DNA of 22,187 nucleotides from Methanocaldococcus indicus (GCF_049554935.1 NZ_CP186927.1:1-22187); one strand, 5' to 3'. Numbered from the stretch's first letter, positions 4,922-22,187 are shown. Program-made: numbers and translations. The notes: generated by a model from the letters alone, not told the origin.

Positions 4922-7900
4922 CTACACATGGTTATTTTCTAATTTTCCAGGTAAATATTCTATCTTATATAAGTATTTTGGGTTTGATATTACTCTTTTT
5001 GATAATTCTTTTCTATTGTCTATCCAAAGATAGTAGTAGTCCCCAACTTTTAATTTTTTATCTGATTTTATATCAATTCTCTTTGGTAGGCTTTCCCAGC
5101 AAATTTCACATTCATAATATGGGCTTCTTTTATCACTAATTACTTTAATGCAAATTGGGAATGCATAACTTAATTTTTCCATAATTTCTAGAACTTCTTT
5201 TCTAACGTCTACTTTATATATATCATCACATTTAATTTTATGTGATGCTGGATTTCTAATATTTTTATGGTTTTTTAATAATTTTAAGACATCATTAGGG
5301 ATGTCTTTACAAAGTGGTGCATTATTGTTTTTTAGATATTCTATGCAATCTACAAGAGGACCATAAGTTATTCTTGAAAAGTTACCTTTATAAATGGTAC
5401 TTAAGTGTTTTTTCCAGTTATCTCCCCAAAGAGTTTTTGCATTAAATTCGACAAACATTTTCATATATTCTTCTAATATAACATAGAACTCCCTATTTAT
5501 AGCTTTTTTGATTTTATAATCATATCTGGTTAAATAGAAATCCCAAGATTCTAATTCATTAACAAACAATGAAGGTAGTCTCATTAAGAAATTATCACTT
5601 ACCCAACTGTTAATCTGAGTATTAAAGTCTTCAATATTATCATCCATATATAATTTTTTTGATTTATCAGCATCTCCAATAATCTTCCCAATAATATCAT
5701 CAAGTAATTTTTTTGATATTTTGTCATCAGCAAGATTTCTTGATTTTAGTGTTATATATGAAGTTATTAAATATAAAATTTGACATAAGTTTTTAAAATT
5801 GTAATTGTTAGCTTCTTTTCTTAGTTCATCTAATTTAAATGCATCTTCAAGAGTATATTTGTCATTTAGTATTATTTTTAATCCTTCATAAAGATAATTA
5901 AAAAATTTATATTTTCTTGTATGGCTGCCAAATTCCTTAGAATAATTTAAAAACATTTCTAATTCATTTATAGCTTCTTTTAACTTATAATTTTTCATTG
6001 AAATATAAAACTTATATAGATGCATATCAGCAACTATTAAATTTGGGGATGGAATATAATTCGGAAATTGAGCATATTCGGATAATTCGATTGATTTCTC
6101 AGCCATTTGTAATGCAATGTCATACTCTTTATTTGACCAATGTAATTTTGCTTTTAGATAATAATAAATCATTTCAGAAGTTTTTGCAAATTCTTTTAAT
6201 CCCCCAATATTGAAGTAATTTATTGCCTTTTTTAAGTAATTCAAAGTTTCTTCTAATGAATTACAGAATCTCATGAGATTTTCAAATTTTAATCCAAGAA
6301 GATAATAGATTGTCCTCTTATCTTTTATCTTTTTTGCATAATCAATGGATATATCAATATATTCTATAAATTTTTCTTTATTCTTTCTATATAGTAAAGC
6401 AAGACATTTATAGGCGTTCATATATTCATCATATGCTATTTTCTCATCATATTGTTTTACAACATCTCCAGATTTTTTATAACAATAGTGGGCATTGTCA
6501 AAAAGTTTTAGGGTTTCATACTCTTTTGCCAATATATTCCAATACATATGTATTGAAAAGTCCATAACTCTCTTGTAATCTTCTTTTTTAAATTTTTTAA
6601 AAGCTTTTTCAGCAATTTCATATTGATTTTCGGTCCAAATTTTTGCTAAAGTATAATTTTTCTTTTTTCTATAATATATTGATTTATATTTACAATAACT
6701 CATTTCTATTTGCCAATATGCTTCATATTTGTTAACTTTATCACCATATTTTTTAAAATATAACTTAAGTTTTTCAATCTCTCCAATAATCTCTTCCAAG
6801 TTTTTTATTTTATCCATAGCTAAAAATTTACTTTTTGCTGATATTAACGCACATTCAACTTTACCTAATTTTAAAAATAACTCTTTTGCAGTTTCAAAAT
6901 TATTAACTGCTAATTCATATTGCTTATGCATCATATTTCTTATGCCTTCAAAATATTGAATCTTTGCATTAATTAGAGTAAATTTGTCTCCTTCTTTTAA
7001 AAGATTTAAAGCATTTTTATATGAAGTTATTAAGGAATCAATATCTCCCTTTTTATAATACTCTTTTGCCTTTTCTTCCCAATAAGATACTTTTTTTAAA
7101 GTTGTATTTCCAATACCAATTTTTGATAAAAAAGATTTTATAGTCGATGATATGTTTGTAATATCTTCATTTAATACACTCTCATATTCCTCTCTATGAA
7201 ACAATTTCTTAGTTTTTAAGTCTTTTACACTATTTTTATCTTTATTGTATTTATTAACATTTCTTTTAGATAAAATTTCACTTTTTTTAATTATATTGTT
7301 ATTAGATAAAATTGTTAATTTTTTAGAGTTTAGTTCTGCTGAATTTTTCATTAATGATAATAATTTCTTTTTGTATTTTATAGCTCCCTCATTAGATGGA
7401 GAAAGTTCAAGTACTTTGTTAAAACACTCTAATGCTTTATCATATTCTCTTAAATAATAATGGACTTCTCCCTTTTTATACCAAAATCCAACGTCTCTTG
7501 GGAAAAGGAGAACAGCTCTATCTAAATAATACAAAGCATCACTATATTTTCTATGTTTATACAAAATTTTTCCCAAATTATAACAAGAAACAGCCAAATC
7601 ATGAATAATTGACTTATCTAACTTAATTTTATTTAAATTATTTAATATATTCTTTGATTTGTTAAAATCTCCTAAATATGCATAAGATAATGCTAAATAA
7701 AACAATGCTTCATTATCTTTTTTAATATTAATGTATTTTGATAATGCATCTACTGCATTTTTATAATCATTCAAATAAAAATAACACATTCCAACTCTTT
7801 TCAATGCTTCTACATTATATTCATTTATTCTCTTTGAAATTTTATAATTATCTATGGCATTCTTATAATCTTTCAAATAAAAATAACAATCTCCAATATA

Positions 7901-8041
7901 ATGATAAATTTTCCAGTTGTTATTTACAATTTTTGTATATTCTTTAAGATAATGCAAGGCTTTACTATATTTTTTTTCATTATAATACATTAAACCAACT
8001 TTTTTTAAATCACCCAACTCAGTTTTTATTTGCCTTTTCAT
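4922..8041 (-). CDS. 1039-aa TPR-repeat protein with a candidate C-terminal HEPN-like domain
   Basis: Multiple canonical TPRs (e.g. WYKKGEVHYYLREYDKALECFNKVLELSP); C-terminal helical domain with LEEYMK...IRNPASH (Rx4H). Confidence 0.85.
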   Translation of the reverse strand: MKRQIKTELGDLKKVGLMYYNEKKYSKALHYLKEYTKIVNNNWKIYHYIGDCYFYLKDYKNAIDNYKISKRINEYNVEALKRVGMCYFYLNDYKNAVDALSKYINIKKDNEALFYLALSYAYLGDFNKSKNILNNLNKIKLDKSIIHDLAVSCYNLGKILYKHRKYSDALYYLDRAVLLFPRDVGFWYKKGEVHYYLREYDKALECFNKVLELSPSNEGAIKYKKKLLSLMKNSAELNSKKLTILSNNNIIKKSEILSKRNVNKYNKDKNSVKDLKTKKLFHREEYESVLNEDITNISSTIKSFLSKIGIGNTTLKKVSYWEEKAKEYYKKGDIDSLITSYKNALNLLKEGDKFTLINAKIQYFEGIRNMMHKQYELAVNNFETAKELFLKLGKVECALISAKSKFLAMDKIKNLEEIIGEIEKLKLYFKKYGDKVNKYEAYWQIEMSYCKYKSIYYRKKKNYTLAKIWTENQYEIAEKAFKKFKKEDYKRVMDFSIHMYWNILAKEYETLKLFDNAHYCYKKSGDVVKQYDEKIAYDEYMNAYKCLALLYRKNKEKFIEYIDISIDYAKKIKDKRTIYYLLGLKFENLMRFCNSLEETLNYLKKAINYFNIGGLKEFAKTSEMIYYYLKAKLHWSNKEYDIALQMAEKSIELSEYAQFPNYIPSPNLIVADMHLYKFYISMKNYKLKEAINELEMFLNYSKEFGSHTRKYKFFNYLYEGLKIILNDKYTLEDAFKLDELRKEANNYNFKNLCQILYLITSYITLKSRNLADDKISKKLLDDIIGKIIGDADKSKKLYMDDNIEDFNTQINSWVSDNFLMRLPSLFVNELESWDFYLTRYDYKIKKAINREFYVILEEYMKMFVEFNAKTLWGDNWKKHLSTIYKGNFSRITYGPLVDCIEYLKNNNAPLCKDIPNDVLKLLKNHKNIRNPASHKIKCDDIYKVDVRKEVLEIMEKLSYAFPICIKVISDKRSPYYECEICWESLPKRIDIKSDKKLKVGDYYYLWIDNRKELSKRVISNPKYLYKIEYLPGKLENNHV

Positions 8042-8814: not shown

Positions 8815-8977
8815 AGCTATGGAGAGTGTTGCTATTAATGATATTAATATTTTTTTATTTTCTGTAATTAAACCTAATCTTTAATTTTATTAAGTTAAGT
8901 TAATAAAATACCTATTTTGGTTAATAAAAACTCCCACTGGTTGTAAATTTTTTTAGTTAAATATAGGGTGATAAAAA

Positions 8978-9421
8978 ATGGATGAAGAAAAATTAAATAA
9001 AATCATAAATGAATTTTTAGAAAGATGCAAAGAAAAATTTGGTGATAATTTAATATCAATAATTTTATTTGGTTCTTATGCAAGAGGGACAGCAACTGAA
9101 TATTCCGATGTTGATTTATTAGTTATTGCTAATAACTTGCCAAAAAGAAGAATTGATAGGCATAAAGTATTAAGGGATGAAGTATTACATTTTATTTTTA
9201 AATATGGAGTCAATATCTCTCCTATATTAGTTGAACCAAGAGATTTATCCCCAAAAGATATAAACCCATTAATTTGTGGTATTTTAACTGGTTATAAAAT
9301 AATTTATGACAAAAACAATTTCTGGAAAAATTATATTGAGAAAATAAAGCCAATTATTAAAAGGACAAAGCCTGTGTTTATTGATGGGGATAAGGAATGG
9401 AAAATAGCGAGTTTAATATAA
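8978..9421 (+). CDS. MNT minimal nucleotidyltransferase (antitoxin)
   Basis: LFGSYARG...SDVDL motif; GGGTGAT RBS; overlaps the next gene by 25 nt. Confidence 0.93.
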   Translation: MDEEKLNKIINEFLERCKEKFGDNLISIILFGSYARGTATEYSDVDLLVIANNLPKRRIDRHKVLRDEVLHFIFKYGVNISPILVEPRDLSPKDINPLICGILTGYKIIYDKNNFWKNYIEKIKPIIKRTKPVFIDGDKEWKIASLI

Positions 9422-9849
9422 AATATGCTAAATTGTTTATAAATAGGGCTGAAGAAGATTTAGAAGTTGCAAAAGTATTATTAGAAACTAATCATTATCC
9501 TGATTCCATTTATCATTCTCAACAATGTGCTGAAAAGGCTGTAAAAGCAATTTTGATTTTAAATAATATTATTGTTAGGAAACATATTGTTTCAGGAATT
9601 TTTAGGGATGTTCTATATAGAATGGATATTGAAGAGTCTTGGAAAGATAAATTACTTTATTTAATACCTAAAATTGAGAGTTTAGAAGAACACTGGGTTA
9701 TGCCAAGATATCCAGAACCATATTTTGGTGAATTTTGGAATCCATTAGAAGAATATACCAAAGAAGATGCTGAAGAATGTATTAAAAATGCAGAGTATGT
9801 TTTAAAGGTTGTTAAGGAGTTTTTAAAAGAAAAATATGGTTTAGAGTAA
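9397..9849 (+). CDS. HEPN-domain protein, partner of MNT
   Basis: A.EDL..A, SQQCAEKAVKA and RYP motifs of MNT-associated HEPN proteins. Confidence 0.92.
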   Translation: MENSEFNIKYAKLFINRAEEDLEVAKVLLETNHYPDSIYHSQQCAEKAVKAILILNNIIVRKHIVSGIFRDVLYRMDIEESWKDKLLYLIPKIESLEEHWVMPRYPEPYFGEFWNPLEEYTKEDAEECIKNAEYVLKVVKEFLKEKYGLE

Positions 9850-10189
9850 AAGAATATAAACCTTATAAATTAGCAATGTATGCTCCTGAAATAATTAGTA
9901 AGGTACTGTTGTTTAAATAACCTTAAATATATCAACTGGTATAGATGCAAAAACAGCAGTAGAATCCAAGCTAATATAAGAGGAGAGTAGATGATATACA
10001 TTAAACACTCCCTACTTAATAAAAGAACTCAACAACAAATATTTTTACCACTTTTTAGTTGAAAAGACATTTTAAATTTTATCTTTTTTAATTATTTTCA
10101 ATTTTTACTGGTGGAAATATAAAATCACAGAGAGAATGAACTTAACTACTACTTAAAAAATCCTACTGCCAATTAGAGCCAAACTCTAT

Positions 10190-10750
10190 TTTGTTTTTGG
10201 TCCTACATCTCCTGGAAAATCAACTGTAATGAGGAGTGTCATTAAAGAGTAGAAAATAACTCATAATCAAAAAGGTTGCTCCAACACTCCCAATGAAGAG
10301 CTTCCCTTCAATTCTTTCTAAGCAATAATAATCATACAAAGTTTTGTTATAATGGATATAATGGAGGAGGTTGCCACTGCTATAGGTCCTTTTTTTTGCC
10401 CATATCATTTTATCCAAATATATTTTTGAAAAACCTGAACTTTGAAAGCTAAGTTCAGATAATGGTGCTAAACCAAAACCTTGCTGGGCATATATATTAT
10501 ATAGATAACAAATACTCCAACGGCATTACTCATTTTCACTCCTATTTTTTACAGTTATTAAGATATCCAAATACATTTTAAAAACTTGAACTTTGGAGCA
10601 AAGTATTTGAATTTACTTATGAGTGAAAGTGCAATAACTCCCCATGTAGTTTTTGATTTTCCAAATAATATTTTAGAAAAATCCAAATTTTCATCCTTTA
10701 TGTGGTGTAATCTTAACTCTTGCCCTAAAAAAGAGTAGATAGTAATTATT
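10190..10750 (-). pseudogene. Probable degraded membrane-protein gene
   Basis: Successive hydrophobic fragments in different minus frames (TTWGVIALSLI; GPIAVATSSIISIITKLCMIIIA; LFIGSVGATFLIMSYFLL) broken by stops and frameshifts. Confidence 0.35.
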
Positions 10751-10763
10751 CTAAATTAATGGG

Positions 10764-11139
10764 TTTCCATCCTCCGAGAGGCTCGATTTTAACTAAAAAA
10801 ATAAAAAGAGGGTGATAAAAAATGAAAATAGTTTCCATCCTCCAAGAGGCATGATTTTAACCCAACTTGACATTTCCAAACTCATTCATCAAAAGAGGAG
10901 TGTTTTCATCCTCTAAGAGGCACGATTTTAACCAACTCCCTTGAGTGCTTGTCGGCATCCCCAAACTGATTTCCATCCTCTAAGAGGCACGATTTTAACA
11001 AATAACTATGAAAAAATATAAAGAATATATAGAAAGTTATTTCCATCCTCTAAGAGGCACGATTTTAACAGTGGCTTTGTTTTAAGAGTAAGAGAGAATA
11101 TAATGGAGTTTTCCATCCTCTAAGAGGCACGATTTTAAC
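10764..11139 (-). CRISPR. Orphan CRISPR array, 6 repeats and 5 spacers
   Basis: 30-bp repeats at 10764, 10832, 10903, 10970, 11040 and 11110 (+ strand TTTCCATCCTCTAAGAGGCACGATTTTAAC; transcribed GTTAAAATCGTGCCTCTTAGAGGATGGAAA). Unique spacers of 38, 41, 37, 40 and 40 nt. Left-hand repeats are degenerate. Confidence 0.97.
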
Positions 11140-11490
11140 AGGCCTATTTTAGACATAATAACATTAACGACCTTCTTATATATAAGCGTTTCTACATAAA
11201 AATTTTCGAAGGGGAGGTTTCCCTATTCATTTATATACCTTTGAACTTTTATAAAAATCTTTCTATTCTCAATTATTCAATTAAAAATTTTTTATTTCAA
11301 AAAACTAAACCAACTTATCGGAGATTTTCAAATATTAAAAGAAATAATTTAAAACTCCAAAAAATCTCAATAAATTATACAATTGAAATATATATAATAT
11401 TCAAAATACAGACCCCCTCTGAATTTACCTAAAAATCCTTTAAATTGAAAATAATCAATTAAAAACCAATAAAATTAAAAAATAAAAATT
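11140..11490 (-). promoter_or_regulatory. CRISPR leader with TATA box
   Basis: AT-rich non-coding region next to the intact repeats. The minus strand reads GAAACG-CTTATATATAAG (TATA at 11175-11186), about 35 nt from the first repeat. Distal boundary approximate. Confidence 0.78.
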
Positions 11491-11593
11491 TTTAGCGTGA
11501 TAAGTTTCAAGAAATCAAGAATACTCTGTTTGTGAGAACTGACTATAAAAGTAAAAAATAAGTAAAGTAAGAAGTTCAAAAAATACTAAGCAG

Positions 11594-11658: not shown

Positions 11659-12195
11659 ATGTGGGATAGAGCTCTGAACTTTGATGCTACTCTAAAGTTC
11701 ATACTTTCAGAAATTGATAAAACCTTAGATAAGAAAATTCTATATAAATATGACAAAATTAGACTATTGTATTTATCTATTGCTCTAATCCAGCTAAAGA
11801 ATGGATGTAGGGTTGGTGAAGCTGTTGATTCAATGCTACAATATCTTGAAAATGGGACATATGATGTCAATGTTAGAATTGGAAAAAGAAAAGATAATGC
11901 TGAAAGAAAAGTTATAATCCCAGTAGAATTGGATGAAATTGTAAATCATATCTCTGATTTGGAATTACCAGATAAAAAAACAATTGTTAAGAGAGTAAAA
12001 AGCTATTTTATAACAAAATATAATATAAACACTCACTCTTTTAGATATGCATACATTACCAAACTATCTACTGAGGGAGTTCCTGCTCAAGTAATTGCTA
12101 AAATAACAGGACATAAGAAATTAGACTGCATACTGCACTACACAAACCAAAAAGCTGCAGACAATATATTAAAGAAATTTTCTGGGAGATATTAA
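11659..12195 (+). CDS. Minimal tyrosine recombinase (catalytic domain only), probable resolvase
   Basis: GCRVGE (R), GKRK (K), HSFR (HxxR), TGH (H), HY (Y); 178 aa. Confidence 0.92.
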   Translation: MWDRALNFDATLKFILSEIDKTLDKKILYKYDKIRLLYLSIALIQLKNGCRVGEAVDSMLQYLENGTYDVNVRIGKRKDNAERKVIIPVELDEIVNHISDLELPDKKTIVKRVKSYFITKYNINTHSFRYAYITKLSTEGVPAQVIAKITGHKKLDCILHYTNQKAADNILKKFSGRY

Positions 12196-12760: not shown

Positions 12761-13246
12761 TTATTTTAGTTTTACTATTTTTAATCTACCTTTCTTAATA
12801 ATTTGGATTTTTCCCTCTTTTTTGAGTTCTTTTATTAGCTTGTAGAACTTTTTAGCTCCCATATCTACACTATTTAATAATTCAGTTATATTCACTTCAT
12901 TTTTTTCATAAAGAATATTTAAAATTTTTTCTTTATCATCATCAATTTCCATATTATGTTCTTTTTTAATATTCTCAATCTTAGAAGTATTTATAATTCC
13001 ATTAATTAGCAAATTTAATGTTTCTACTTGTTTTTGTATATCTTCTAAATCTTTTCTTGTGAGAACATCATTTTCAAGCTTTTTAATCTTATTATTAACA
13101 TCATTTTCTAACTTCTCTATATGTTCCCTAAGTGAAATTATATTTTCCTCAAATTCACTAAGTTTTTTTATAATAGTTTCCTGATTTTCTTTTATTCTTT
13201 TGTAATCATCTAATTCTAAATATTTTAAAAGAAATTTTTTAAGCAT
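12761..13246 (-). CDS. Coiled-coil plus C-terminal winged-helix DNA-binding protein
   Basis: Heptad-rich N-terminal half; KILNIL...ITEL...FYKLIKELKKEGKI...GR wHTH pattern; AGGAGTG RBS. Confidence 0.8.
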   Translation of the reverse strand: MLKKFLLKYLELDDYKRIKENQETIIKKLSEFEENIISLREHIEKLENDVNNKIKKLENDVLTRKDLEDIQKQVETLNLLINGIINTSKIENIKKEHNMEIDDDKEKILNILYEKNEVNITELLNSVDMGAKKFYKLIKELKKEGKIQIIKKGRLKIVKLK

Positions 13247-13383: not shown

Positions 13384-14524
13384 CTGATAGTGTGAATTCT
13401 CATTATCGATTATAAAACCAAAAAAATAAAATAGTATAGTTCTAAATACTTCATTAAAAAACGGTGATTAAACCATGCTACCTGCACTTAAAGAATTACT
13501 CGATAATAGTTTAAATACTTTAGGTATAGCCAATTCGGATGATTTAGTAGATTACTGCTTGATTAGAACTTTAACCGATATAAAGACAATTAAATCAATA
13601 TCCGAAGAGATTTTAGAAATTCATCGAACAACCATAATCAAAAAACTTCAAAAGCCATCAGAAATTGAGAACTGCTTTTATGCTCAGCTATTGAACCTTC
13701 CAGTCATTTTAAATAATCGTAAATTTAAATTTTCAATAATAATTGACTCAACCTTATTGAGAAGATATAGTAAAAACGTATTTAGTAGTTCTATTAGATA
13801 TAACTACGTAGAAAATCATAAAAAATTATACCAAGAACAAATAAACTGCTGTATTTTTAATAAAAAAAAAGGATTATAAATAAAACCAAAAAATATTAAA
13901 TCAACTGATGTATATTTCGAAATTATCGAATCAATATCTAAAATTATTAAGGGGACGGTCATTGGTGATGGTTTTGTAATAATAAAGAAAATTTTAAGGA
14001 GATGTAAAGAATTGGGAATCGATTATATTAGTAGAATTAGAAAAAACATAAAAATTGAGGTTTTCGGTAAAGATGTTAAAATAGAAGATATGTTTAAAAA
14101 GGACTTCAACGAAAATAAAACTAAATCAAGAACTATTAACGAAAAGAAGTTCATAATATCCGAGAAAGTGATTAATATTCCCAATTGTTGGAAAGGTTAA
14201 AATCGTTGCAGTATTAATGGAAGGTAAGAAAAAGATTAAGTATTTAGTCTCGACAAACTATAAAAAGAAAGCTGAGAATATTATAAACGAGTATTTAAAA
14301 AGATGTAAGATAGAAGAGAAGCATAGAAGGGATAAGTCGATTTTGGAGGTTGAAGGAAATTATTTGTCCTCAGAAAAGAGTAATATAGGATTCGTTAGGT
14401 TAATGGGAATGTTATTTAATTGTATCGAATATTTAAGCTACAAAAATGGAATATCATTCTATAAAGTCATTAAAGAGTGTAGTAAAGAACTAATAAAGAA
14501 CGAATATCGTAATCACACTTTCAG
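13384..14524 (+). mobile_element. Inactivated IS4-superfamily (IS701/ISH3-like) insertion sequence
   Basis: Terminal inverted repeats CTGATAGTGTGA (13384) and TCACACTTTCAG (ending 14524), one mismatch. Flanks TATAA and TTTAA may be a decayed 5-bp target duplication. Confidence 0.72.
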
Positions 14525-14564
14525 TTTAAAGTTTTATAAACACCCACTTTTACTCCCTCCATAA
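13475..14564 (+). pseudogene. DDE transposase pseudogene
   Basis: IIIDST, VIGDG and YLKRCKIEEKHRRDK (Y-2-R-3-E-6-K) motifs; in-frame TAA at 13877-13879 and a frameshift near 14185. Confidence 0.85.
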
Positions 14565-15571: not shown

Positions 15572-18500
15572 ATGGGGTGTGTAGTAATGGCAAGTAGTGC
15601 AATATATAATTTAGATTATTTAAAAAGTAAAGGTTTTTTCAAAACTTATGGAGAGTTGGAAATTGACGGAAAAAGAATACTTTGGGATAAAGATAACTAT
15701 TTAACCTATGTAGAAGTTGAAAATTTGAGTGAATTGGAAAAAATCCATAATAAACTAAAAAAATATGTTAAGCTTGAATACTTTTATTATTACTATAAAA
15801 ATAAAAATAAAGTTAAAGTATTCAAAAGAGGCTGCAGTGTAGCTTTTACATATTCAGATAGTATAAGAAGAAATGACGTTAGAAATAGTAAAAGAGACAA
15901 GTTAAATCAATTTTCACCAGAAAATATGGATATTCTTTTTGATACTAAGGATGTAATGGATAAGTTTTATAATGAATTATGTCAGTTAAGGTTAGAATTG
16001 GCTAACAGTATTAAAAAACCAATTAAAGATAAGGACAAACTCTTAGTAGTTCAACACTTTATTGATAGGTTAGTATTCTTTTACTTCCTATGCCAATTAG
16101 GAATTGTTAAAGTAAAGTATAGGATAAATGGACAAGTTTATGAAATCACAATGAACAAAGAAACTACAAAGAGTTTTTTTGAATTTTTAATTAAGAATTT
16201 AAAGGATTTTGAATTACAGAAGCTTTTAAATACAATATTTTTTGACGGTTTAGGGAATGAAAGTAAGGTAAATGATTGTGGTTATGTTGATGTGCATGTA
16301 AAAGTTGGAGAATGGGAGTTTAACATCTTAGTTCCTTATTTAAATGGAGGATTATTTAGAGATAAGGAAATTCTAACTGAAAACAATACAAAAATTAGAG
16401 AATCAGAAATTGAATTTAGTGGGGTAATAAAGTTAATAGAGATGCTAAACCAATATAATTGGATTATTGGAGATTGTTCTGATGATGACGGCGACTCTAT
16501 CAACAATTTAACTCCCGAAATTTTAGGTCATGTTTACGAGAAATTTGTTGTTGGTTTGGAAAATATCGGAGAAGATATTAAATTAGATGAATTAGAATTT
16601 AGTAAGATAGAATATGAGAAAAAAAGTATAGGAGCATATTATACTCCAGAGGAAATAACATCCTATATTTCAGTGAATACAATAATCCCATACTTATTTG
16701 ATAAGTTGGGAGTGAAAGAGTATAATGAAATTTTAAATCCAAAAGTGGCTTTTGATGAGTTTGTTGAACATGCCAGTAAAGATGAGTTGAAAAAAGCATT
16801 GGAAATTTTAAATGAGATTAAAGTTTTAGACCCAGCTTGTGGTAGTGGTCATTTTTTAGTTAGTGCAGGAAATTTACTATTTGACTTAAAAGAATCCCTT
16901 TGTAATAAGTTAATTGAAAAATTTGGTTTTGAGAAGAAATTAGATGAGTATGCAGAGGTTAAGAAGATTATTGTTGATAATTTGTATGGTGTAGACATTA
17001 GTGAAACAGCAGTTGAAATTGCTAAGTTAAGGTTGTGGTTATGGTTGGTTAGCCAATTAAAAAATAGTGAGAATATTGAACCATTGCCAAATTTAGAGTA
17101 TAACATTAAGTGTGGAAACTCATTAATTGGATGGGTTGATGAAAAATTACAGCCAACTTTAAAATATGCTTATACTGACAAGATTGAAGGAATTTTTAAG
17201 GATTTAATTGCATTTTGTAATGACGATAAAGAGAGAGAAATGTTAATTAAGGCGAGAGATTTGCTTAAATCAGTAAAAGGGAATATTTTAGATAATTATG
17301 TTGAAGCATTTCATTTAATATATGAGATTTACAAGACAAGTCATGGGCATAAAGCAGCACAATTAAAGGAAATTTTAGAGGATGTTAGGGAAGTTATCTA
17401 TGATTGTGTAAATCCGGCATTTTTAAATTATATTAATAGTAAGCTAAAAAAGAATAAGATTAGTGAAAAAGAATTTTTAAGTTTAAGACCATTCCATTGG
17501 AGAGTTGATTTTGGTTGGATTATTAAAGAAGGCGGATTTGATATTGTTATTGGAAATCCTCCTTATATAAATATTTATAATATACCAAAGTTAGATAAAA
17601 AAATATACTCTAATGTCTATAATTTTGCTTATAAAAAATATGACATTTATATTTTATTTATCGAGAGAGGACTTAATCTCCTTAATTCTCAAGGGTATAT
17701 TTCATATATTATCCCAGATAAATGGACTGCAGAGGATTATGGTTATAAACTTAGAGAATATATTCTTATGACAAGAAATCTAAAAGAAATTGTGGATTTA
17801 AGAAATGTTGAAGTATTCTATGGAGTTGGTGTTAGAAATCTCATATTTGTTTTATGTAAATCAAAAATTTTTGATAGTATATTAATCAAAAATGAAAGAT
17901 TTAACATTAAAAATATGTTACAGTATGAAATAATTAAGCAACACCCAAAATATCATATTAGATTAGATATAACTAAGATAGATATTGATATAATCAAATA
18001 TTTATTGTCAAATTCAATACCGCTAAGACACGTTTGTTATGTTAATTGGGGTTGCAGACCATCTCCATCTAAAAAATATGTGTTTAATTCTTATGAACAA
18101 TGTTTAAAAACTACTAAAAATAAAAATTTATGTAAAAGATTGATTAAGGGAAGAAATGTTAAAAGATACTATTATAATTGGGACGGATTATGGTTAGCCT
18201 ATTTGCCCACAATGTATAATCCAATGTTTCCAGAATTATTTGAAAATGATAGAATAGTAATTAAAGATATTGGAACCAATCCATTATCTGTAACATACAT
18301 ATGTGGTTCTTTAAAATTTTATTCAGAACACACTACAATTAATGTTTTAAAATATGAAGTAATACCAAAAAACAAAATAAAAACAGAAAATAGAAAACTA
18401 TTTCAAGAAATTTCTTTAAAGTATATATTAACTAATATTATTTCGAAACTAAATAATTACTTTTTGAATAAATATTTATCAGATGGATTACACGTATTAC

Positions 18501-18970
18501 CAGAAAATACAAGAAATTTAAGGTTGAAATTAATAAACGATACCAAACCATATGAAACTATTGTTAATTATCTTTTATTCCTAAATGCAAAAGAAGATTG
18601 GAGAGAAAAATACAAAGAAAATATAAACTTCTTTGATAAGGAAATTGCTGACTCTTTAATTTATGAACTCTACTTCAAGGAAAAATTCCATGAAGATGGG
18701 CTCTATCCAGAGCCAAAAGAATATTTATTAGAAGCAGTTTCAAAACACTTAAAACCAATAAATTATGATAGATGGGCAGAATTGTATTGGAAAAAGCAAT
18801 TAGAGAATAATTTAACAAAAGAAGAAGAACAAGAATTAAAACAATTGGAAGAGGAAAATCTAAAAATAATACATGAAGTTTATGAAAAAATTAAAAAAGA
18901 TGATATAATAAATAAATTAATTGAGAAAATAAAATCACACGAGTGGGTTAGGATTATTGAAAGTAGTTAA
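15572..18970 (+). CDS. Large gamma-class N6-adenine DNA methyltransferase (Eco57I/type IIG-like) with C-terminal TRD; start probably 15587
   Basis: LG.VYE, GAYYTP, motif I LDPACGSGHFL, YGVDI, GNSL, motif IV GNPPY; GGGGTG precedes ATG 15587. Confidence 0.93.
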   Translation: MGCVVMASSAIYNLDYLKSKGFFKTYGELEIDGKRILWDKDNYLTYVEVENLSELEKIHNKLKKYVKLEYFYYYYKNKNKVKVFKRGCSVAFTYSDSIRRNDVRNSKRDKLNQFSPENMDILFDTKDVMDKFYNELCQLRLELANSIKKPIKDKDKLLVVQHFIDRLVFFYFLCQLGIVKVKYRINGQVYEITMNKETTKSFFEFLIKNLKDFELQKLLNTIFFDGLGNESKVNDCGYVDVHVKVGEWEFNILVPYLNGGLFRDKEILTENNTKIRESEIEFSGVIKLIEMLNQYNWIIGDCSDDDGDSINNLTPEILGHVYEKFVVGLENIGEDIKLDELEFSKIEYEKKSIGAYYTPEEITSYISVNTIIPYLFDKLGVKEYNEILNPKVAFDEFVEHASKDELKKALEILNEIKVLDPACGSGHFLVSAGNLLFDLKESLCNKLIEKFGFEKKLDEYAEVKKIIVDNLYGVDISETAVEIAKLRLWLWLVSQLKNSENIEPLPNLEYNIKCGNSLIGWVDEKLQPTLKYAYTDKIEGIFKDLIAFCNDDKEREMLIKARDLLKSVKGNILDNYVEAFHLIYEIYKTSHGHKAAQLKEILEDVREVIYDCVNPAFLNYINSKLKKNKISEKEFLSLRPFHWRVDFGWIIKEGGFDIVIGNPPYINIYNIPKLDKKIYSNVYNFAYKKYDIYILFIERGLNLLNSQGYISYIIPDKWTAEDYGYKLREYILMTRNLKEIVDLRNVEVFYGVGVRNLIFVLCKSKIFDSILIKNERFNIKNMLQYEIIKQHPKYHIRLDITKIDIDIIKYLLSNSIPLRHVCYVNWGCRPSPSKKYVFNSYEQCLKTTKNKNLCKRLIKGRNVKRYYYNWDGLWLAYLPTMYNPMFPELFENDRIVIKDIGTNPLSVTYICGSLKFYSEHTTINVLKYEVIPKNKIKTENRKLFQEISLKYILTNIISKLNNYFLNKYLSDGLHVLPENTRNLRLKLINDTKPYETIVNYLLFLNAKEDWREKYKENINFFDKEIADSLIYELYFKEKFHEDGLYPEPKEYLLEAVSKHLKPINYDRWAELYWKKQLENNLTKEEEQELKQLEEENLKIIHEVYEKIKKDDIINKLIEKIKSHEWVRIIESS

Positions 18971-19091: not shown

Positions 19092-19135
19092 GTTGATGGA
19101 GATATCCACAATTATTGGTATTATCTACCATCAAC
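19092..19135. promoter_or_regulatory. Long imperfect hairpin between the methyltransferase and nuclease genes
   Basis: GTTGATGG-AGATA-TCCA...TGG-TA-TTATCT-A-CCATCAAC, ending 18 nt before ATG 19154. Confidence 0.5.
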
Positions 19136-19153
19136 TACTTAGTGGGAATAATT

Positions 19154-22100
19154 ATGAGTTCTCAAATCTATTACATCTACAATAACAAACCAAACATTTT
19201 CCCTTATGAAAAAACAGTATTAGAATTATTCCAAGAAAAAATTAACAATGCAATAGAAAAAAATAAAAAACTCTCAATTTATTGTGCAGTGGGGTTTTTC
19301 TTTTTTGAGGGTTTATCAGAATTAATCCCAGATTTAGAAAAACTATACAATAAAGGACTATTAAAAGAATTTAAGTTAGTTATGGGTAGGGAAACTAAAG
19401 CCACAACAAAAGAAGTTTTAGAAGCAATAAAGAATGATGCTACCTACTTATCAAATAAGGATTATCTGTTTATAAAAAAATTATATGATGAAGGAATTTT
19501 TGATTTTAGAATATATTTAGATAGAAGATTCCATATTAAATTATATTTATTTGAAGAGAATGATGTCTTAACTGATGTGTGGGCTGGGAGTGCAAATCTT
19601 ACATCAGGAGGATTAAAGGATAACATTGAATTGATAGTCCCAACTGGAGTGACATCAAAAGATAGAGAGATTTACAAAGAATTCTTTAATAAAATTTGGG
19701 AAAGTGCTACTGATAAAGTTGAAGAGTTAAAAACTATTGATTTAATAAAAAAAGGTGCCACTGCCAAGGCAATCTATTTACCACCAAGAGAGTTTTTTGC
19801 CAATTTAATAAAAATTCTGGAAAAAGAGTATTTACTATCAAATCCTTCAGTGGAAATTTCTTATTTGGCAGAATTTCAACATATGAGTTATTTCATGTGC
19901 TTAGAAAAATTAAACAAGTGGGGTGGAGTAATCTTAGCAAATTCTGTGGGTTTGGGAAAAACTGATGTTGCATGTGCCATTGCAAAATACTATACTAACA
20001 TGGGTAAAAAAGTTTTAGTCATCCATCCTCCTAATGTAGAACATCAATGGATGAATACTTTAAAAAAAGTTGGATTAAGCCCATGTAAAGGAAAAACTCA
20101 AATATTAGACAAATGGGTTGAAGAAAATAACCAATCAGACAATTATGTTGTTTTATTATCAATGGGACTATTACAGAATAAAAATTTTAACGTCCAAGAG
20201 TATGATGGTTTTGATTTAATAATTGTTGATGAAGCACACAATTTTAGAAATTTAAAATCAAATAGAAGAAAAAACTTAAACAATCTGATAATGACTAATC
20301 AAAATTGTCATACTTTGTTAATAACTGCCACTCCAATTAATATTTCATTAGCTGATTATATAAGTTTATTGGAATTATTCACTTTAAAGGAAAAATATAA
20401 AGAAAGATTCGAAAGTGAGGGGATTATTAACAAAATAGAAACTATCAATAAGCTTATTAGAAATGATGATACTGTTGAAGCTGTAAAAATCATTAGAGAG
20501 CTGATTAAAGAATTTACAGTAAGATTAGAATGGATTGATATTTTAAAACACTTTAAAAAAGACTTGGAGAGAATTGCTGGAGTTACAGATTTCAAAATGC
20601 CTACTGTAATTCCAGTAGAATATAAGTATGACGATAGAGTTGTTCAGGCAATTTTTAATAGAGTTGTAGATTATTTAGCACAGCTGAATTATGAATATGC
20701 CAAACTATGGGATGAAGAAGGTTATAAAGAGGACAAAAACCTAATTTTCTGGTATAAATGGAGGCTGTATAAAAGATTGGAAAGTAGTGTTTATGCCTTT
20801 AAAAAGAGTTTAGAAAAATTTAAAGAGAGAAATGAATACTTATTAAACATATTCAATAAAATTGATAATAAAGAAAAGATTAGTAATGATTTATTATCCA
20901 CCCCACTTTTTGATAAGGAAAGGTTAAAAATCATTATTTCCACATATAAATCACTTAAAGAAGTTGATAGAAACAAAATTAAGGAAAATATTGAGAAAGA
21001 TATTATACTAACAACTGAAATGTTAGATAAAATTAAATCAATAGAGAAAATTCTTGAAATTGATGAGAAAGTTAAAAAATTAATTGAAATATTAAAAAAA
21101 GAAAACAAACCTACAATAATATTTTCTGAATCAAGAGATACTGTAATGTATTTAAAGGAAAAGTTAGAAAAGGAGGGTTTCACTAAGGTTGGAGTTGCTT
21201 ATGGTGGAGATGTTCAAAAAAAAGGTGTTAATAAGAAAAAAGTCCAAGATGAATTTAACAGTGGAGTGTATGATATTTTAGTAACAACTGATGTTCTTAG
21301 TGAGGGTGTCAATCTTCCAAGAGCTGATGTTGTTATTAATTTTGACTTACCTTATAATCCTGTTAAACTAATACAAAGAGCTGGGAGAGCTATTAGGTTG
21401 AATAATCCAAAGCATATTAAAATATACAATTTCAAGCCAGATGAGAGTATTGATATGGAATTAGAATTATGTAACAAATTAAAAATAAGAGTTGAGAACA
21501 TTGTTGCCACTATTGGTATTGAATTTATAATTTGGAGTATTGACCAAAAAAAGATTGAAGAATTCTCTGATAAAAATAGAAAAAGAATAGAAGAAGCAAT
21601 AAAAGAGTGGAAGCAAAAATTATCATCCTCAAACCCAGAAGAATTATCTAAGATTGTAGAAAGTAGTTTAGATAAAATTGACAAAGTTTTAAAAGATTAT
21701 ATTAATCATTATTTAATTTCAGAAGAAACTGTTGAAGAACACTATCATAGATATGAAAAACCAATCTATACATCATTAGTTGGAGAAAAAGATGGGTATT
21801 TTGTTGTATTCAAATATAGAGCCAATCATTATTATTGTGGAGAGCTGGAATTTACTACTAATGATACTAAATTAAATTTAGATGATTATGATTTTAAAAT
21901 GATTGACTCAATGATTAATAACAAGATTAATAAATTAGATGAAGAATTTTTAAAGTCTAAACTTAACATAGATAGACTATCTAACAAAATCAAAAAACTT
22001 GTAAAAAAATGTGATAGTACGGTTGAAAGATTAATAAATAGTACAAATATTGAAACATTACCTACCCATAAAAAAGAAAAATTAATTAATCTATTAGAAG

Positions 22101-22187
22101 AATACTTAAAAATTCCTCCTTTTATTAGTGAAGCTAAAAGTGACATAATCAAAAAAATTGAAGATTTAATAAAAAATTCCAAAAATA
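19154..22187 (+). CDS. PLD-family nuclease fused to an SNF2-like SF2 helicase (putative restriction subunit); 1042 aa including 1..95
   Basis: MSSQIYY...; HIKLYLFE (19532) plus GSANLT..GL..N.E; Walker A ANSVGLGKT (19937), DEAH (20228), TATP, SEGVNL, QRAGR (21374). Absent from the ORF track because no stop falls within the linear window. Confidence 0.93.
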   Translation, partial: MSSQIYYIYNNKPNIFPYEKTVLELFQEKINNAIEKNKKLSIYCAVGFFFFEGLSELIPDLEKLYNKGLLKEFKLVMGRETKATTKEVLEAIKNDATYLSNKDYLFIKKLYDEGIFDFRIYLDRRFHIKLYLFEENDVLTDVWAGSANLTSGGLKDNIELIVPTGVTSKDREIYKEFFNKIWESATDKVEELKTIDLIKKGATAKAIYLPPREFFANLIKILEKEYLLSNPSVEISYLAEFQHMSYFMCLEKLNKWGGVILANSVGLGKTDVACAIAKYYTNMGKKVLVIHPPNVEHQWMNTLKKVGLSPCKGKTQILDKWVEENNQSDNYVVLLSMGLLQNKNFNVQEYDGFDLIIVDEAHNFRNLKSNRRKNLNNLIMTNQNCHTLLITATPINISLADYISLLELFTLKEKYKERFESEGIINKIETINKLIRNDDTVEAVKIIRELIKEFTVRLEWIDILKHFKKDLERIAGVTDFKMPTVIPVEYKYDDRVVQAIFNRVVDYLAQLNYEYAKLWDEEGYKEDKNLIFWYKWRLYKRLESSVYAFKKSLEKFKERNEYLLNIFNKIDNKEKISNDLLSTPLFDKERLKIIISTYKSLKEVDRNKIKENIEKDIILTTEMLDKIKSIEKILEIDEKVKKLIEILKKENKPTIIFSESRDTVMYLKEKLEKEGFTKVGVAYGGDVQKKGVNKKKVQDEFNSGVYDILVTTDVLSEGVNLPRADVVINFDLPYNPVKLIQRAGRAIRLNNPKHIKIYNFKPDESIDMELELCNKLKIRVENIVATIGIEFIIWSIDQKKIEEFSDKNRKRIEEAIKEWKQKLSSSNPEELSKIVESSLDKIDKVLKDYINHYLISEETVEEHYHRYEKPIYTSLVGEKDGYFVVFKYRANHYYCGELEFTTNDTKLNLDDYDFKMIDSMINNKINKLDEEFLKSKLNIDRLSNKIKKLVKKCDSTVERLINSTNIETLPTHKKEKLINLLEEYLKIPPFISEAKSDIIKKIEDLIKNSKN

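Follow-up and report, generated by a model that had tools for sequence, protein, structure and literature searches.

A plasmid of Methanocaldococcus indicus, which makes up the whole stretch of DNA analysed here (the window; 22,187 nucleotides, nt), has no cas genes but carries a short array of repeats of the clustered, regularly interspaced, short palindromic type (CRISPR) with a leader from the CRISPR family of its host. It is fairly likely that this is a working orphan array, which is served in trans by the Cas proteins of the host and kept compatible with that host through recombination with chromosomal arrays. The function of orphan arrays on plasmids has rarely been pinned down. If CRISPR RNAs (crRNAs) are made from this one and used, it would be a case from a hyperthermophilic methanogen of a mobile element that rents the CRISPR immunity of its host, and it would offer a possible route for the horizontal spread of spacers.

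The genome of M. indicus (genome code G000) consists of two contigs, the chromosome C1 (1,414,293 bp, GC content 28%) and a second contig, C2 (22,187 bp, GC content 26%), which is the window. C2 can be taken as circular, because the open reading frame (ORF) of an SNF2 helicase (19115-22187) runs past the 3' end and is taken up again from position 1 to a stop at 95.

Anatomy of the Array

Repeat finding and a mismatch scan identified six copies of the 30-nt repeat GTTAAAATCGTGCCTCTTAGAGGATGGAAA on the minus strand, with a spacing of 67-71 nt from one repeat start to the next. The five spacers between them are 40, 40, 37, 41 and 38 nt long and are dissimilar to one another. An initial annotation of this DNA had described a cas-less array of six repeats and five spacers, together with its leader, at 10764..11490. 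The array is borne out by the repeat scans, by an alignment of the leader and by searches with Pfam and PADLOC. With a seventh repeat the array reaches 10688, and the leader is placed at 11140-11503. The parts are as follows, from the leader outward.

11140..11503, minus strand: CRISPR leader, about 364 nt, homologous to 11 chromosomal leaders
11110..11139, minus strand: repeat 1, leader-proximal, 0 mismatches, A at position 19 (A19)
11070..11109, minus strand: spacer 1, the newest, 40 nt, GC 0.33
11040..11069, minus strand: repeat 2, 0 mismatches
11000..11039, minus strand: spacer 2, 40 nt, GC 0.12
10970..10999, minus strand: repeat 3, 0 mismatches
10933..10969, minus strand: spacer 3, 37 nt, GC 0.54
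10903..10932, minus strand: repeat 4, 1 mismatch, A19
10862..10902, minus strand: spacer 4, 41 nt, GC 0.39
10832..10861, minus strand: repeat 5, 2 mismatches, G at position 19 (G19) like the chromosomal arrays
10794..10831, minus strand: spacer 5, 38 nt, GC 0.18, T-rich
10764..10793, minus strand: repeat 6, 3 mismatches, G19
10718..10763, minus strand: oldest spacer-like segment, between repeat 6 and the relic repeat, 46 nt
10688..10717, minus strand: degenerate terminal seventh repeat, 9 mismatches, in phase at 76 nt

Counted from the leader, the repeats thus have 0, 0, 0, 1, 2, 3 and 9 mismatches. Matches as poor as nine mismatches are rare elsewhere: both strands of the 1.41-Mb chromosome together hold just five, all of them isolated. 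Because the seventh repeat is in phase and such matches are so infrequent on the chromosome, the end of the array is placed about 75 nt beyond 10764. The decay of the repeats toward 10688 and the position of the leader at 11140-11503 show that reading proceeds from high to low coordinates. With its regular repeats, its unique spacers, a leader at the well-conserved end and a degenerate far end, the feature is a genuine CRISPR array.

No cas gene was found on the plasmid by Pfam, applied to 17 of its 18 ORFs, or by PADLOC, applied to all 18. Likewise, when the whole genome was searched in six frames for Cas1, Cas6, RAMP and Cas10, the matches were on chromosome C1 only. The array is therefore an orphan, and the earlier statement that the circle holds no cas gene agrees with all three kinds of search. 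The nearest approach to a cas match on the plasmid is a weak CasR/CARF-type helix-turn-helix (HTH) match in PADLOC (E 3e-5). Weak matches of this kind, to CasR and to CARF-associated HTH models (E about 3e-5), come from the C-terminal winged helix of a coiled-coil protein of 161 amino acids, encoded at 12761-13246 on the minus strand.

A Repeat and Leader of the Host Family

The host chromosome has 11 arrays with two families of repeats. Family F1, GTTAAAATCG[T/A]GCCTCTTGGAGGATGGAAA, occupies five arrays with 27 repeats. Family F2, GTTAAAATAAGACCGTCCCGGTATGGAAAT, occupies five arrays of 8-16 repeats and is also present as a solitary copy beside cas2. The plasmid repeat belongs to the F1 family. 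It has in common with both F1 and F2 the 5' end GUUAAAAU, a central 4-bp hairpin and the 3' end AUGGAAA.

The closest relative of the plasmid repeat is that of the chromosomal array C1:935190-935703, to which it is identical at 29 of 30 positions. The only base that differs is position 19, in the hairpin loop, which is A on the plasmid and G on the chromosome. The leader of this array (935709-936078) is 90% identical to that of the plasmid, and both leaders carry the F1-type signature next to the first repeat. The two arrays also differ in several respects. They have no spacer in common, all repeats of the chromosomal array have G19, its leader contains an 11-nt insertion, and its location is chromosomal, with the type I-B cas locus 22 kb away.

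The base at position 19 divides the plasmid array into a newer and an older part. A19 is present in the four leader-proximal repeats and G19 in the two older ones. On the chromosome, G19 is found in 26 of the 27 F1 repeats, the exception being a degenerate relic with A19 at C1:1143945-1143974. The simplest reading of this order is that the change would have arisen in the first repeat and would then have been copied over at least three acquisitions, a sign that the array may have grown since it diverged. The idea that A19 is a variant exclusive to plasmids was considered and rejected, as A19 is also present in chromosomal arrays of genomes G004, G006 and G007.

All 11 chromosomal loci carry a single family of leaders, as seen in an alignment of 12 leaders that includes the one on the plasmid. 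Aligned over its full length, the leader on the plasmid shows 85-90% identity with ten of the host leaders and 77% with the eleventh, which adjoins the cas genes. Among 16 other genomes of the family, the best matches reach 72-75% over partial lengths, with short pieces at up to 78%, and three of the 16 have no match to it. A tree of the leaders, which is poorly resolved, pairs the plasmid leader with that of the array at C1:935k with moderate support (89/88).

The plasmid leader departs from the family at 6 of 244 columns that are invariant elsewhere (2.5%), in a count made without two rows, F1_401k, which has an internal duplication, and F2_967k, which is cas-adjacent. The corresponding figures for the chromosomal leaders are 0.4-3.6%. 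Since the value for the plasmid falls within this range, its leader shows no extra decay. The initial annotation had reported a TATA box for the leader. Two TATA-like motifs are present, both of which fall in blocks common to all 12 leaders. Judging from the sequence, these motifs may act as promoters.

11175..11186, minus strand: proximal TATA-like element and putative promoter, CTTATATATAAG, some 40 nt upstream of repeat 1
11228..11239, minus strand: distal TATA-like element GGTATATAAATG, second candidate promoter element

These relationships could also be explained without any function. In such a model, the leader and array were copied as a unit from a chromosomal locus of the host lineage by recombination, and the copy is now neutral or decaying and of no benefit to the plasmid or its host. 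This would account for a leader and a repeat that nest within the host family, with the array at C1:935k as their nearest relative, and for an array that is short and has three degenerate repeats among its seven. It accounts less well for spacers that are unique to the plasmid, for three leader-proximal repeats that are identical, and for a leader that is no more degraded at its constrained positions than the chromosomal ones. The position of a second array on a related plasmid, described below, bears on the same question.

Recombination itself might be the point of the array. With 11 chromosomal copies to pair with, the leader of about 364 nt and the repeats may allow recombination or integration at host CRISPR loci, the spacers being incidental. 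Through such a platform the plasmid and the chromosome would exchange spacers, or a route to integration into the chromosome would be opened. The idea is in print for orphan arrays of plasmids in general, in the discussion of a plasmid survey that cites Varble et al. (PMC9071438), and the identity of 85-90% to ten chromosomal leaders is in keeping with it. There are also signs that arrays of this genome have recombined with one another, namely a hybrid array and a spacer that occurs in both repeat families. However, sequences that are 85-90% identical are poorly suited to homologous recombination at a high frequency, and the plasmid has an integrase of its own. Furthermore, no homologue of the MCM, zinc-finger, MNT or HEPN genes of the plasmid lies less than 26 kb from any of the 11 chromosomal arrays, the only nearer matches being weak ones of the SNF2 protein, through its helicase domain, at 8-9 kb. 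Even with the further point in its favour that comes from the related plasmid, a role as a platform of this kind is improbable.

The hybrid array is located at C1:281862-282430. It consists of seven F1 repeats of one variant, one F1 repeat of another and a terminal F2-like repeat, a composition that suggests recombination between arrays. The spacer in question is found in an F1 array (C1:935501-935539) and in an F2 array (C1:1004459-1004498), with 1-2 mismatches. Either the same invader was sampled twice or the arrays recombined. In addition, two chromosomal arrays (C1:441798-441899 and C1:1004180-1004285) contain neighbouring spacers that duplicate one another exactly.

A Related Plasmid with an Array at the Same Site

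BLAST of the array and leader against 72,556 plasmid records returned a single plasmid that matches this region, pFS01 of Methanocaldococcus sp. FS406-22 (NC_013888.1, 12,197 bp), through its repeats. The other 106 plasmid records are chance matches, with E at least 0.06 among the matches listed. Like the window, pFS01 is cas-less, and it has genes for MCM, a C2H2 zinc-finger protein and MNT-HEPN, followed by a CRISPR array, in the same order and orientation. The two neighbours of the array in the window are:

8978..9849, plus strand: MNT-HEPN gene pair (Pfam), the syntenic neighbour on the trailer side of the array
11659..12195, plus strand: small tyrosine recombinase (integrase; Pfam, PHROGs), divergent from the leader

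Between the two plasmids, the amino-acid identity is 54.5% for MCM, 71% for the zinc-finger protein, 73% for MNT and 54% for HEPN. The HEPN gene of pFS01 is split by an IS607 element. Its array has nine repeats and eight spacers and is followed by a leader and then by an integrase that is unrelated to the one in the window. The restriction-modification, SNF2 and TPR genes of the window are absent from pFS01. The DNA that separates HEPN from the array cannot be aligned from one plasmid to the other, so their synteny is limited to the order of the genes. G004 and G009 also have homologues of the zinc-finger gene, in each case on two contigs, which in G004 are small. No array was found near them in the stretches covered by a scan for the repeat signature.

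The repeats of pFS01 follow the pattern GTTAAAATC...CCTCTT[A/G]GAGGATGGAAA, as do those in the window, and they too have A19 in the leader-proximal copies and G19 in the older ones. None of the spacers is common to the two plasmids, and no spacer of either plasmid targets the other.

The leaders tell the two plasmids apart. That of pFS01 shares 78-86% identity with some 20 chromosomal leaders in its own genome (G006). With leaders of G004 the identity is about 73-77%, and in the M. indicus genome there is a match to a single 102-nt piece at 73%. The leaders of pFS01 and the window cannot be aligned with each other except for the last 50 nt or so. Because the leaders of the two host species barely align, the pattern requires an exchange of DNA between plasmid and chromosome at CRISPR loci after the hosts diverged. 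This exchange took the form of either gene conversion of an array already present on an ancestral plasmid or two captures at the same site. The requirement for past recombination between plasmid and chromosome also counts in favour of the recombination platform considered above.

Two related archaeal plasmids, each with an array in the same place and a leader matched to its own host, form a clean natural pair. The pair argues that the array is maintained in a host-compatible form and is not a mere leftover. For the model of a neutral copy, arrays in the same position and orientation on backbones whose proteins are only 54-73% identical, each with a host-matched leader, would have to be two neutral accidents, which is a hard explanation to accept. 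The initial annotation had itself allowed for a captured chromosomal array. That much of it holds which concerns origin, as leader and repeat come from the host family, but the spacers are specific to the plasmid and the array occupies the same place in a relative. A copy of no benefit to the plasmid is an unlikely explanation, though one to be reckoned with.

In the supplementary table of the plasmid survey (PMC9071438), pFS01 is entered with one CRISPR and one orphan CRISPR. The sections covered of the literature on plasmids of Methanocaldococcus and Methanococcales and on CRISPR, including PMC8371274 and PMC6972569, describe neither array beyond that entry.

The Cas Machinery of the Host

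The host genome has one type I-B locus (C1:958121-967105), one type III-A locus and a single Cas6. The expectation, voiced in the initial annotation, that Methanocaldococcus chromosomes combine Cas systems with similar repeats holds for this genome, which has repeats of the same family and loci of two types.

The type I-B locus has the order cas6, IS6 transposase (on the other strand), an ORF of 517 amino acids, cas7, cas5, cas3, cas4, cas1 and cas2 (on the opposite strand). The 517-amino-acid ORF has no family match and is presumably cas8. From their sequences, cas6, cas7, cas5, cas3, cas4, cas1 and cas2 are apparently intact. The gene cas2 lies downstream of a copy of the leader and the solitary F2 repeat (locus region C1:958121-967688). 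In the type III-A locus, Cas10/Csm1 is encoded at C1:319720-322353 and RAMP genes are found at 316499-319235.

Since the plasmid lacks cas genes but has a leader from the CRISPR family of its host, it most likely borrows the Cas proteins of that host. The process would start from an archaeal promoter in the leader, which would produce a precursor crRNA from 11139 toward 10688. The single host Cas6 would cut this transcript in each repeat. The resulting crRNAs would then load into the type I-B Cascade/Cas3 complex of the host, into its type III-A Csm complex, or into both. New spacers would be inserted next to the leader by host Cas1-Cas2-Cas4 acting in trans. Recombination with chromosomal arrays would keep the unit of leader and repeat matched to the current host. 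A benefit to the plasmid, such as the exclusion of competing elements, would be a further step.

Spacers and the Search for Targets

The plasmid spacers, at 37-41 nt, fall inside a range of 32-48 nt for the host (median 37, n = 76 spacers of normal length). Spacer 3 is unusually GC-rich, with a GC content of 0.54 against a host mean of 0.29. No similar spacer was found among the 76 chromosomal spacers of normal length.

None of the plasmid spacers has a match in the chromosome or in the plasmid itself, where the best ungapped alignments have 9-15 mismatches. An identical array on the host chromosome, which would have spoken against a role for the plasmid copy, is accordingly not found (0 of 5 spacers occur there), and the remark that the plasmid holds no full protospacer is upheld. 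The opposite comparison, of about 80 chromosomal spacers with the plasmid, also gave no match.

This last result bears on a different role for the array. Its transcripts could act as a decoy or regulator that would sequester the Cas6 or the effector complexes of the host and thereby blunt immunity against the plasmid or its allies. General facts, namely repeats compatible with the host on an element without cas genes, would fit such a role. However, six units on the plasmid could hardly titrate proteins that also serve about 90 units on the chromosome. Moreover, since no host spacer targets the plasmid, there is nothing for a decoy to blunt. A role of this kind is very improbable.

The initial annotation had proposed that the spacers direct host Cas against rival viruses or plasmids. 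No target was found in the phage, plasmid and chromosome searches or in those of 40 genomes of the order. BLAST of the whole array against 50,697 phage records gave a best E of 0.4, with all matches on the A+T-rich spacer 2. The oldest spacer-like segment (10718-10763) had chance matches only in the phage and plasmid collections.

Three spacers were also searched by exact seeds in large collections. The 24-nt seed of spacer 3 had no match in viral, metagenome or genome contigs, the 23-nt seed of spacer 1 none in viral or metagenome contigs, and the 26-nt seed of spacer 4 none in viral or genome contigs. As exact seeds were required, diverged targets would escape these searches. For spacers 3 and 4, a pattern search of the 40 genomes of the order that allowed up to 3 mismatches and took in the small contigs gave only the spacers themselves. 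Spacers 2 and 5, which are of low complexity, had matches at chance level only, in an external search that consisted of BLAST against phages and plasmids alone.

Two apparent leads were rejected. Spacer 1 gave two seed matches with 3 mismatches in the 40 genomes, and these extend to only 26/40 and 28/40 identical positions and were put down to chance. Spacer 2 resembles spacers in arrays of G026 and G034, and this BLAST match is driven by repeat ends and low complexity.

In one study, only about 6% of Sulfolobales spacers could be assigned protospacers (PMC6858448). Given this rate and the limits of the searches, a blank target search is weak evidence. It nonetheless counts in favour of the model of a neutral copy.

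A public sequencing run (X1) contains contigs that are nearly identical to the plasmid backbone, for example to 8968-10385, where 4 of 1419 nt differ. A repeat-spacer-repeat piece with another spacer is also present in this run. The run is uninformative on the array, because its contigs break at the repeats.

Weighing the Evidence

Several observations weigh against a working array that is served by the host. The lack of a protospacer for any spacer leaves an array without demonstrated function, and the array is short, with decaying distal repeats. The solitary repeat that adjoins the host cas genes is of the F2 family, which is not the family of the plasmid. The similarity between the plasmid leader and those of the host could stem from recent capture rather than from selection. 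The order of A19 and G19 could be a product of recombination between arrays, since A19 is also chromosomal, in the G000 relic and in G004, G006 and G007. Finally, the activity of the type I-B system is assumed, given an IS6 element between cas6 and the putative cas8 and a cas2 gene on the opposite strand.

A working orphan array on an MCM-replicating plasmid, served in trans, remains the favoured explanation, and it can be extended to a lineage of plasmids. In this wider proposal, MCM plasmids of Methanocaldococcus keep the array as a fixed module of their backbone after MNT-HEPN and repeatedly re-tune its leader and repeat for each host through recombination with the chromosomal arrays found there. 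They would build their own immune memory against competitors by means of host Cas1-Cas2, Cas6 and the I-B and III-A systems, and would, as a side effect, ferry spacers between chromosome and plasmid and in this way from cell to cell. Taken as a whole, this proposal is speculative and rather unlikely to hold.

Comparison with Other Orphan Arrays

The plasmid survey already mentioned reports 207 orphan arrays, for which use of host Cas proteins in trans or recombination with host CRISPRs is proposed (Pinilla-Redondo et al. 2022, PMC9071438). In the sections covered here, such arrays are described as common, as shorter than those associated with cas genes and as perhaps being remnants, a view that lends some support to the model of a neutral copy. 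The array in the window resembles the survey arrays, as far as these sections characterise them, in being solitary, plasmid-borne and shorter than typical cas-linked arrays, with repeats that are host-compatible in the window. Unlike the present work, the part of the survey covered contains no analysis of leaders. Three other Methanocaldococcus plasmids, NC_001732.1, NC_001733.1 and NC_013157.1, are given without CRISPR in its table.

A second point of comparison is provided by the mini-arrays of the Sulfolobales viruses SPV1 and SPV2, of which the following is taken from part of the published account (Medvedeva et al. 2019, PMC6858448). These are also cas-less, are located on mobile elements and have host-like leaders. 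Their leaders carry BRE (transcription factor B recognition element) and TATA elements, and the adaptation and interference proteins of the host are presumed to serve the arrays. The viral arrays have 1-2 spacers, whereas the plasmid array in the window has five spacers and an older spacer-like segment. Furthermore, the spacers of SPV1 and SPV2 match closely related viruses that occur together with them. For the spacers in the window no match to pFS01 was found, and for spacers 1, 3 and 4 none in the 40 genomes of the order.

The array in the window is thus one more leader-bearing orphan array carried by a mobile element, a category that was already known. Its notable addition to that category is that two related plasmids have, at the same site, a leader matched to the host.

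Other Features of the Plasmid

By Pfam, PADLOC and PHROGs, the ORFs of the plasmid include an EVE-domain protein, the MCM helicase, a large TPR protein, the C2H2 zinc-finger protein and the MNT-HEPN pair. They further include the small tyrosine recombinase, an HTH protein, fragments of an ISC1217-like transposase, a type IIG restriction-modification protein and a PLD-SNF2 helicase. The possibility that the contig is a virus was considered and rejected, as PHROGs gave weak matches of HTH type without any structural or packaging hallmark. A search of viral contigs with the MCM protein gave 97 pattern matches, none of which was confirmed.

Genes of defence type are heavily represented on the plasmid, with the TPR gene at 4922-8041 (minus strand), MNT-HEPN at 8978-9849, the type IIG restriction-modification gene at 15572-18970 and the PLD-SNF2 gene. 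The PLD-SNF2 helicase (19115-22187, continuing to 95) resembles DrmD and BrxH. The TPR protein is 1039 amino acids long and, read by eye, appears to have an R-x4-H motif near its C-terminus.

Two non-coding segments between HEPN and the array, 9888-10067 and 10129-10258, have copies that are 75-85% identical at many chromosomal sites and in many genomes of the order. Scans of the window for tRNAs and Rfam families, these segments included, gave no match. Immediately past the trailer of the array, at 10387-10692, there are direct repeats of 25-45 nt (ATATTTTTGAAAAACCTGAACTTTG and variants). The motif GAACTTTGGAG also occurs downstream of the array of pFS01.

Other parts of the plasmid have close copies on the chromosome. 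The ISC1217-like transposase fragments at 13475-14564 are 84-98% identical to C1:243756-244781, 491077-492115 and 1128781-1129180, and a remnant of the zinc-finger gene with its upstream DNA is found at C1:489494-490104, with an identity of up to 96%. Together, these copies point to traffic between plasmid and chromosome.

Just 5' of the MCM gene, at 1842-2090, lies a series of tandem repeats of about 27-30 nt, whose ORF translation repeats 'FIRFYLLDKG'. They may be iterons of a replication origin.

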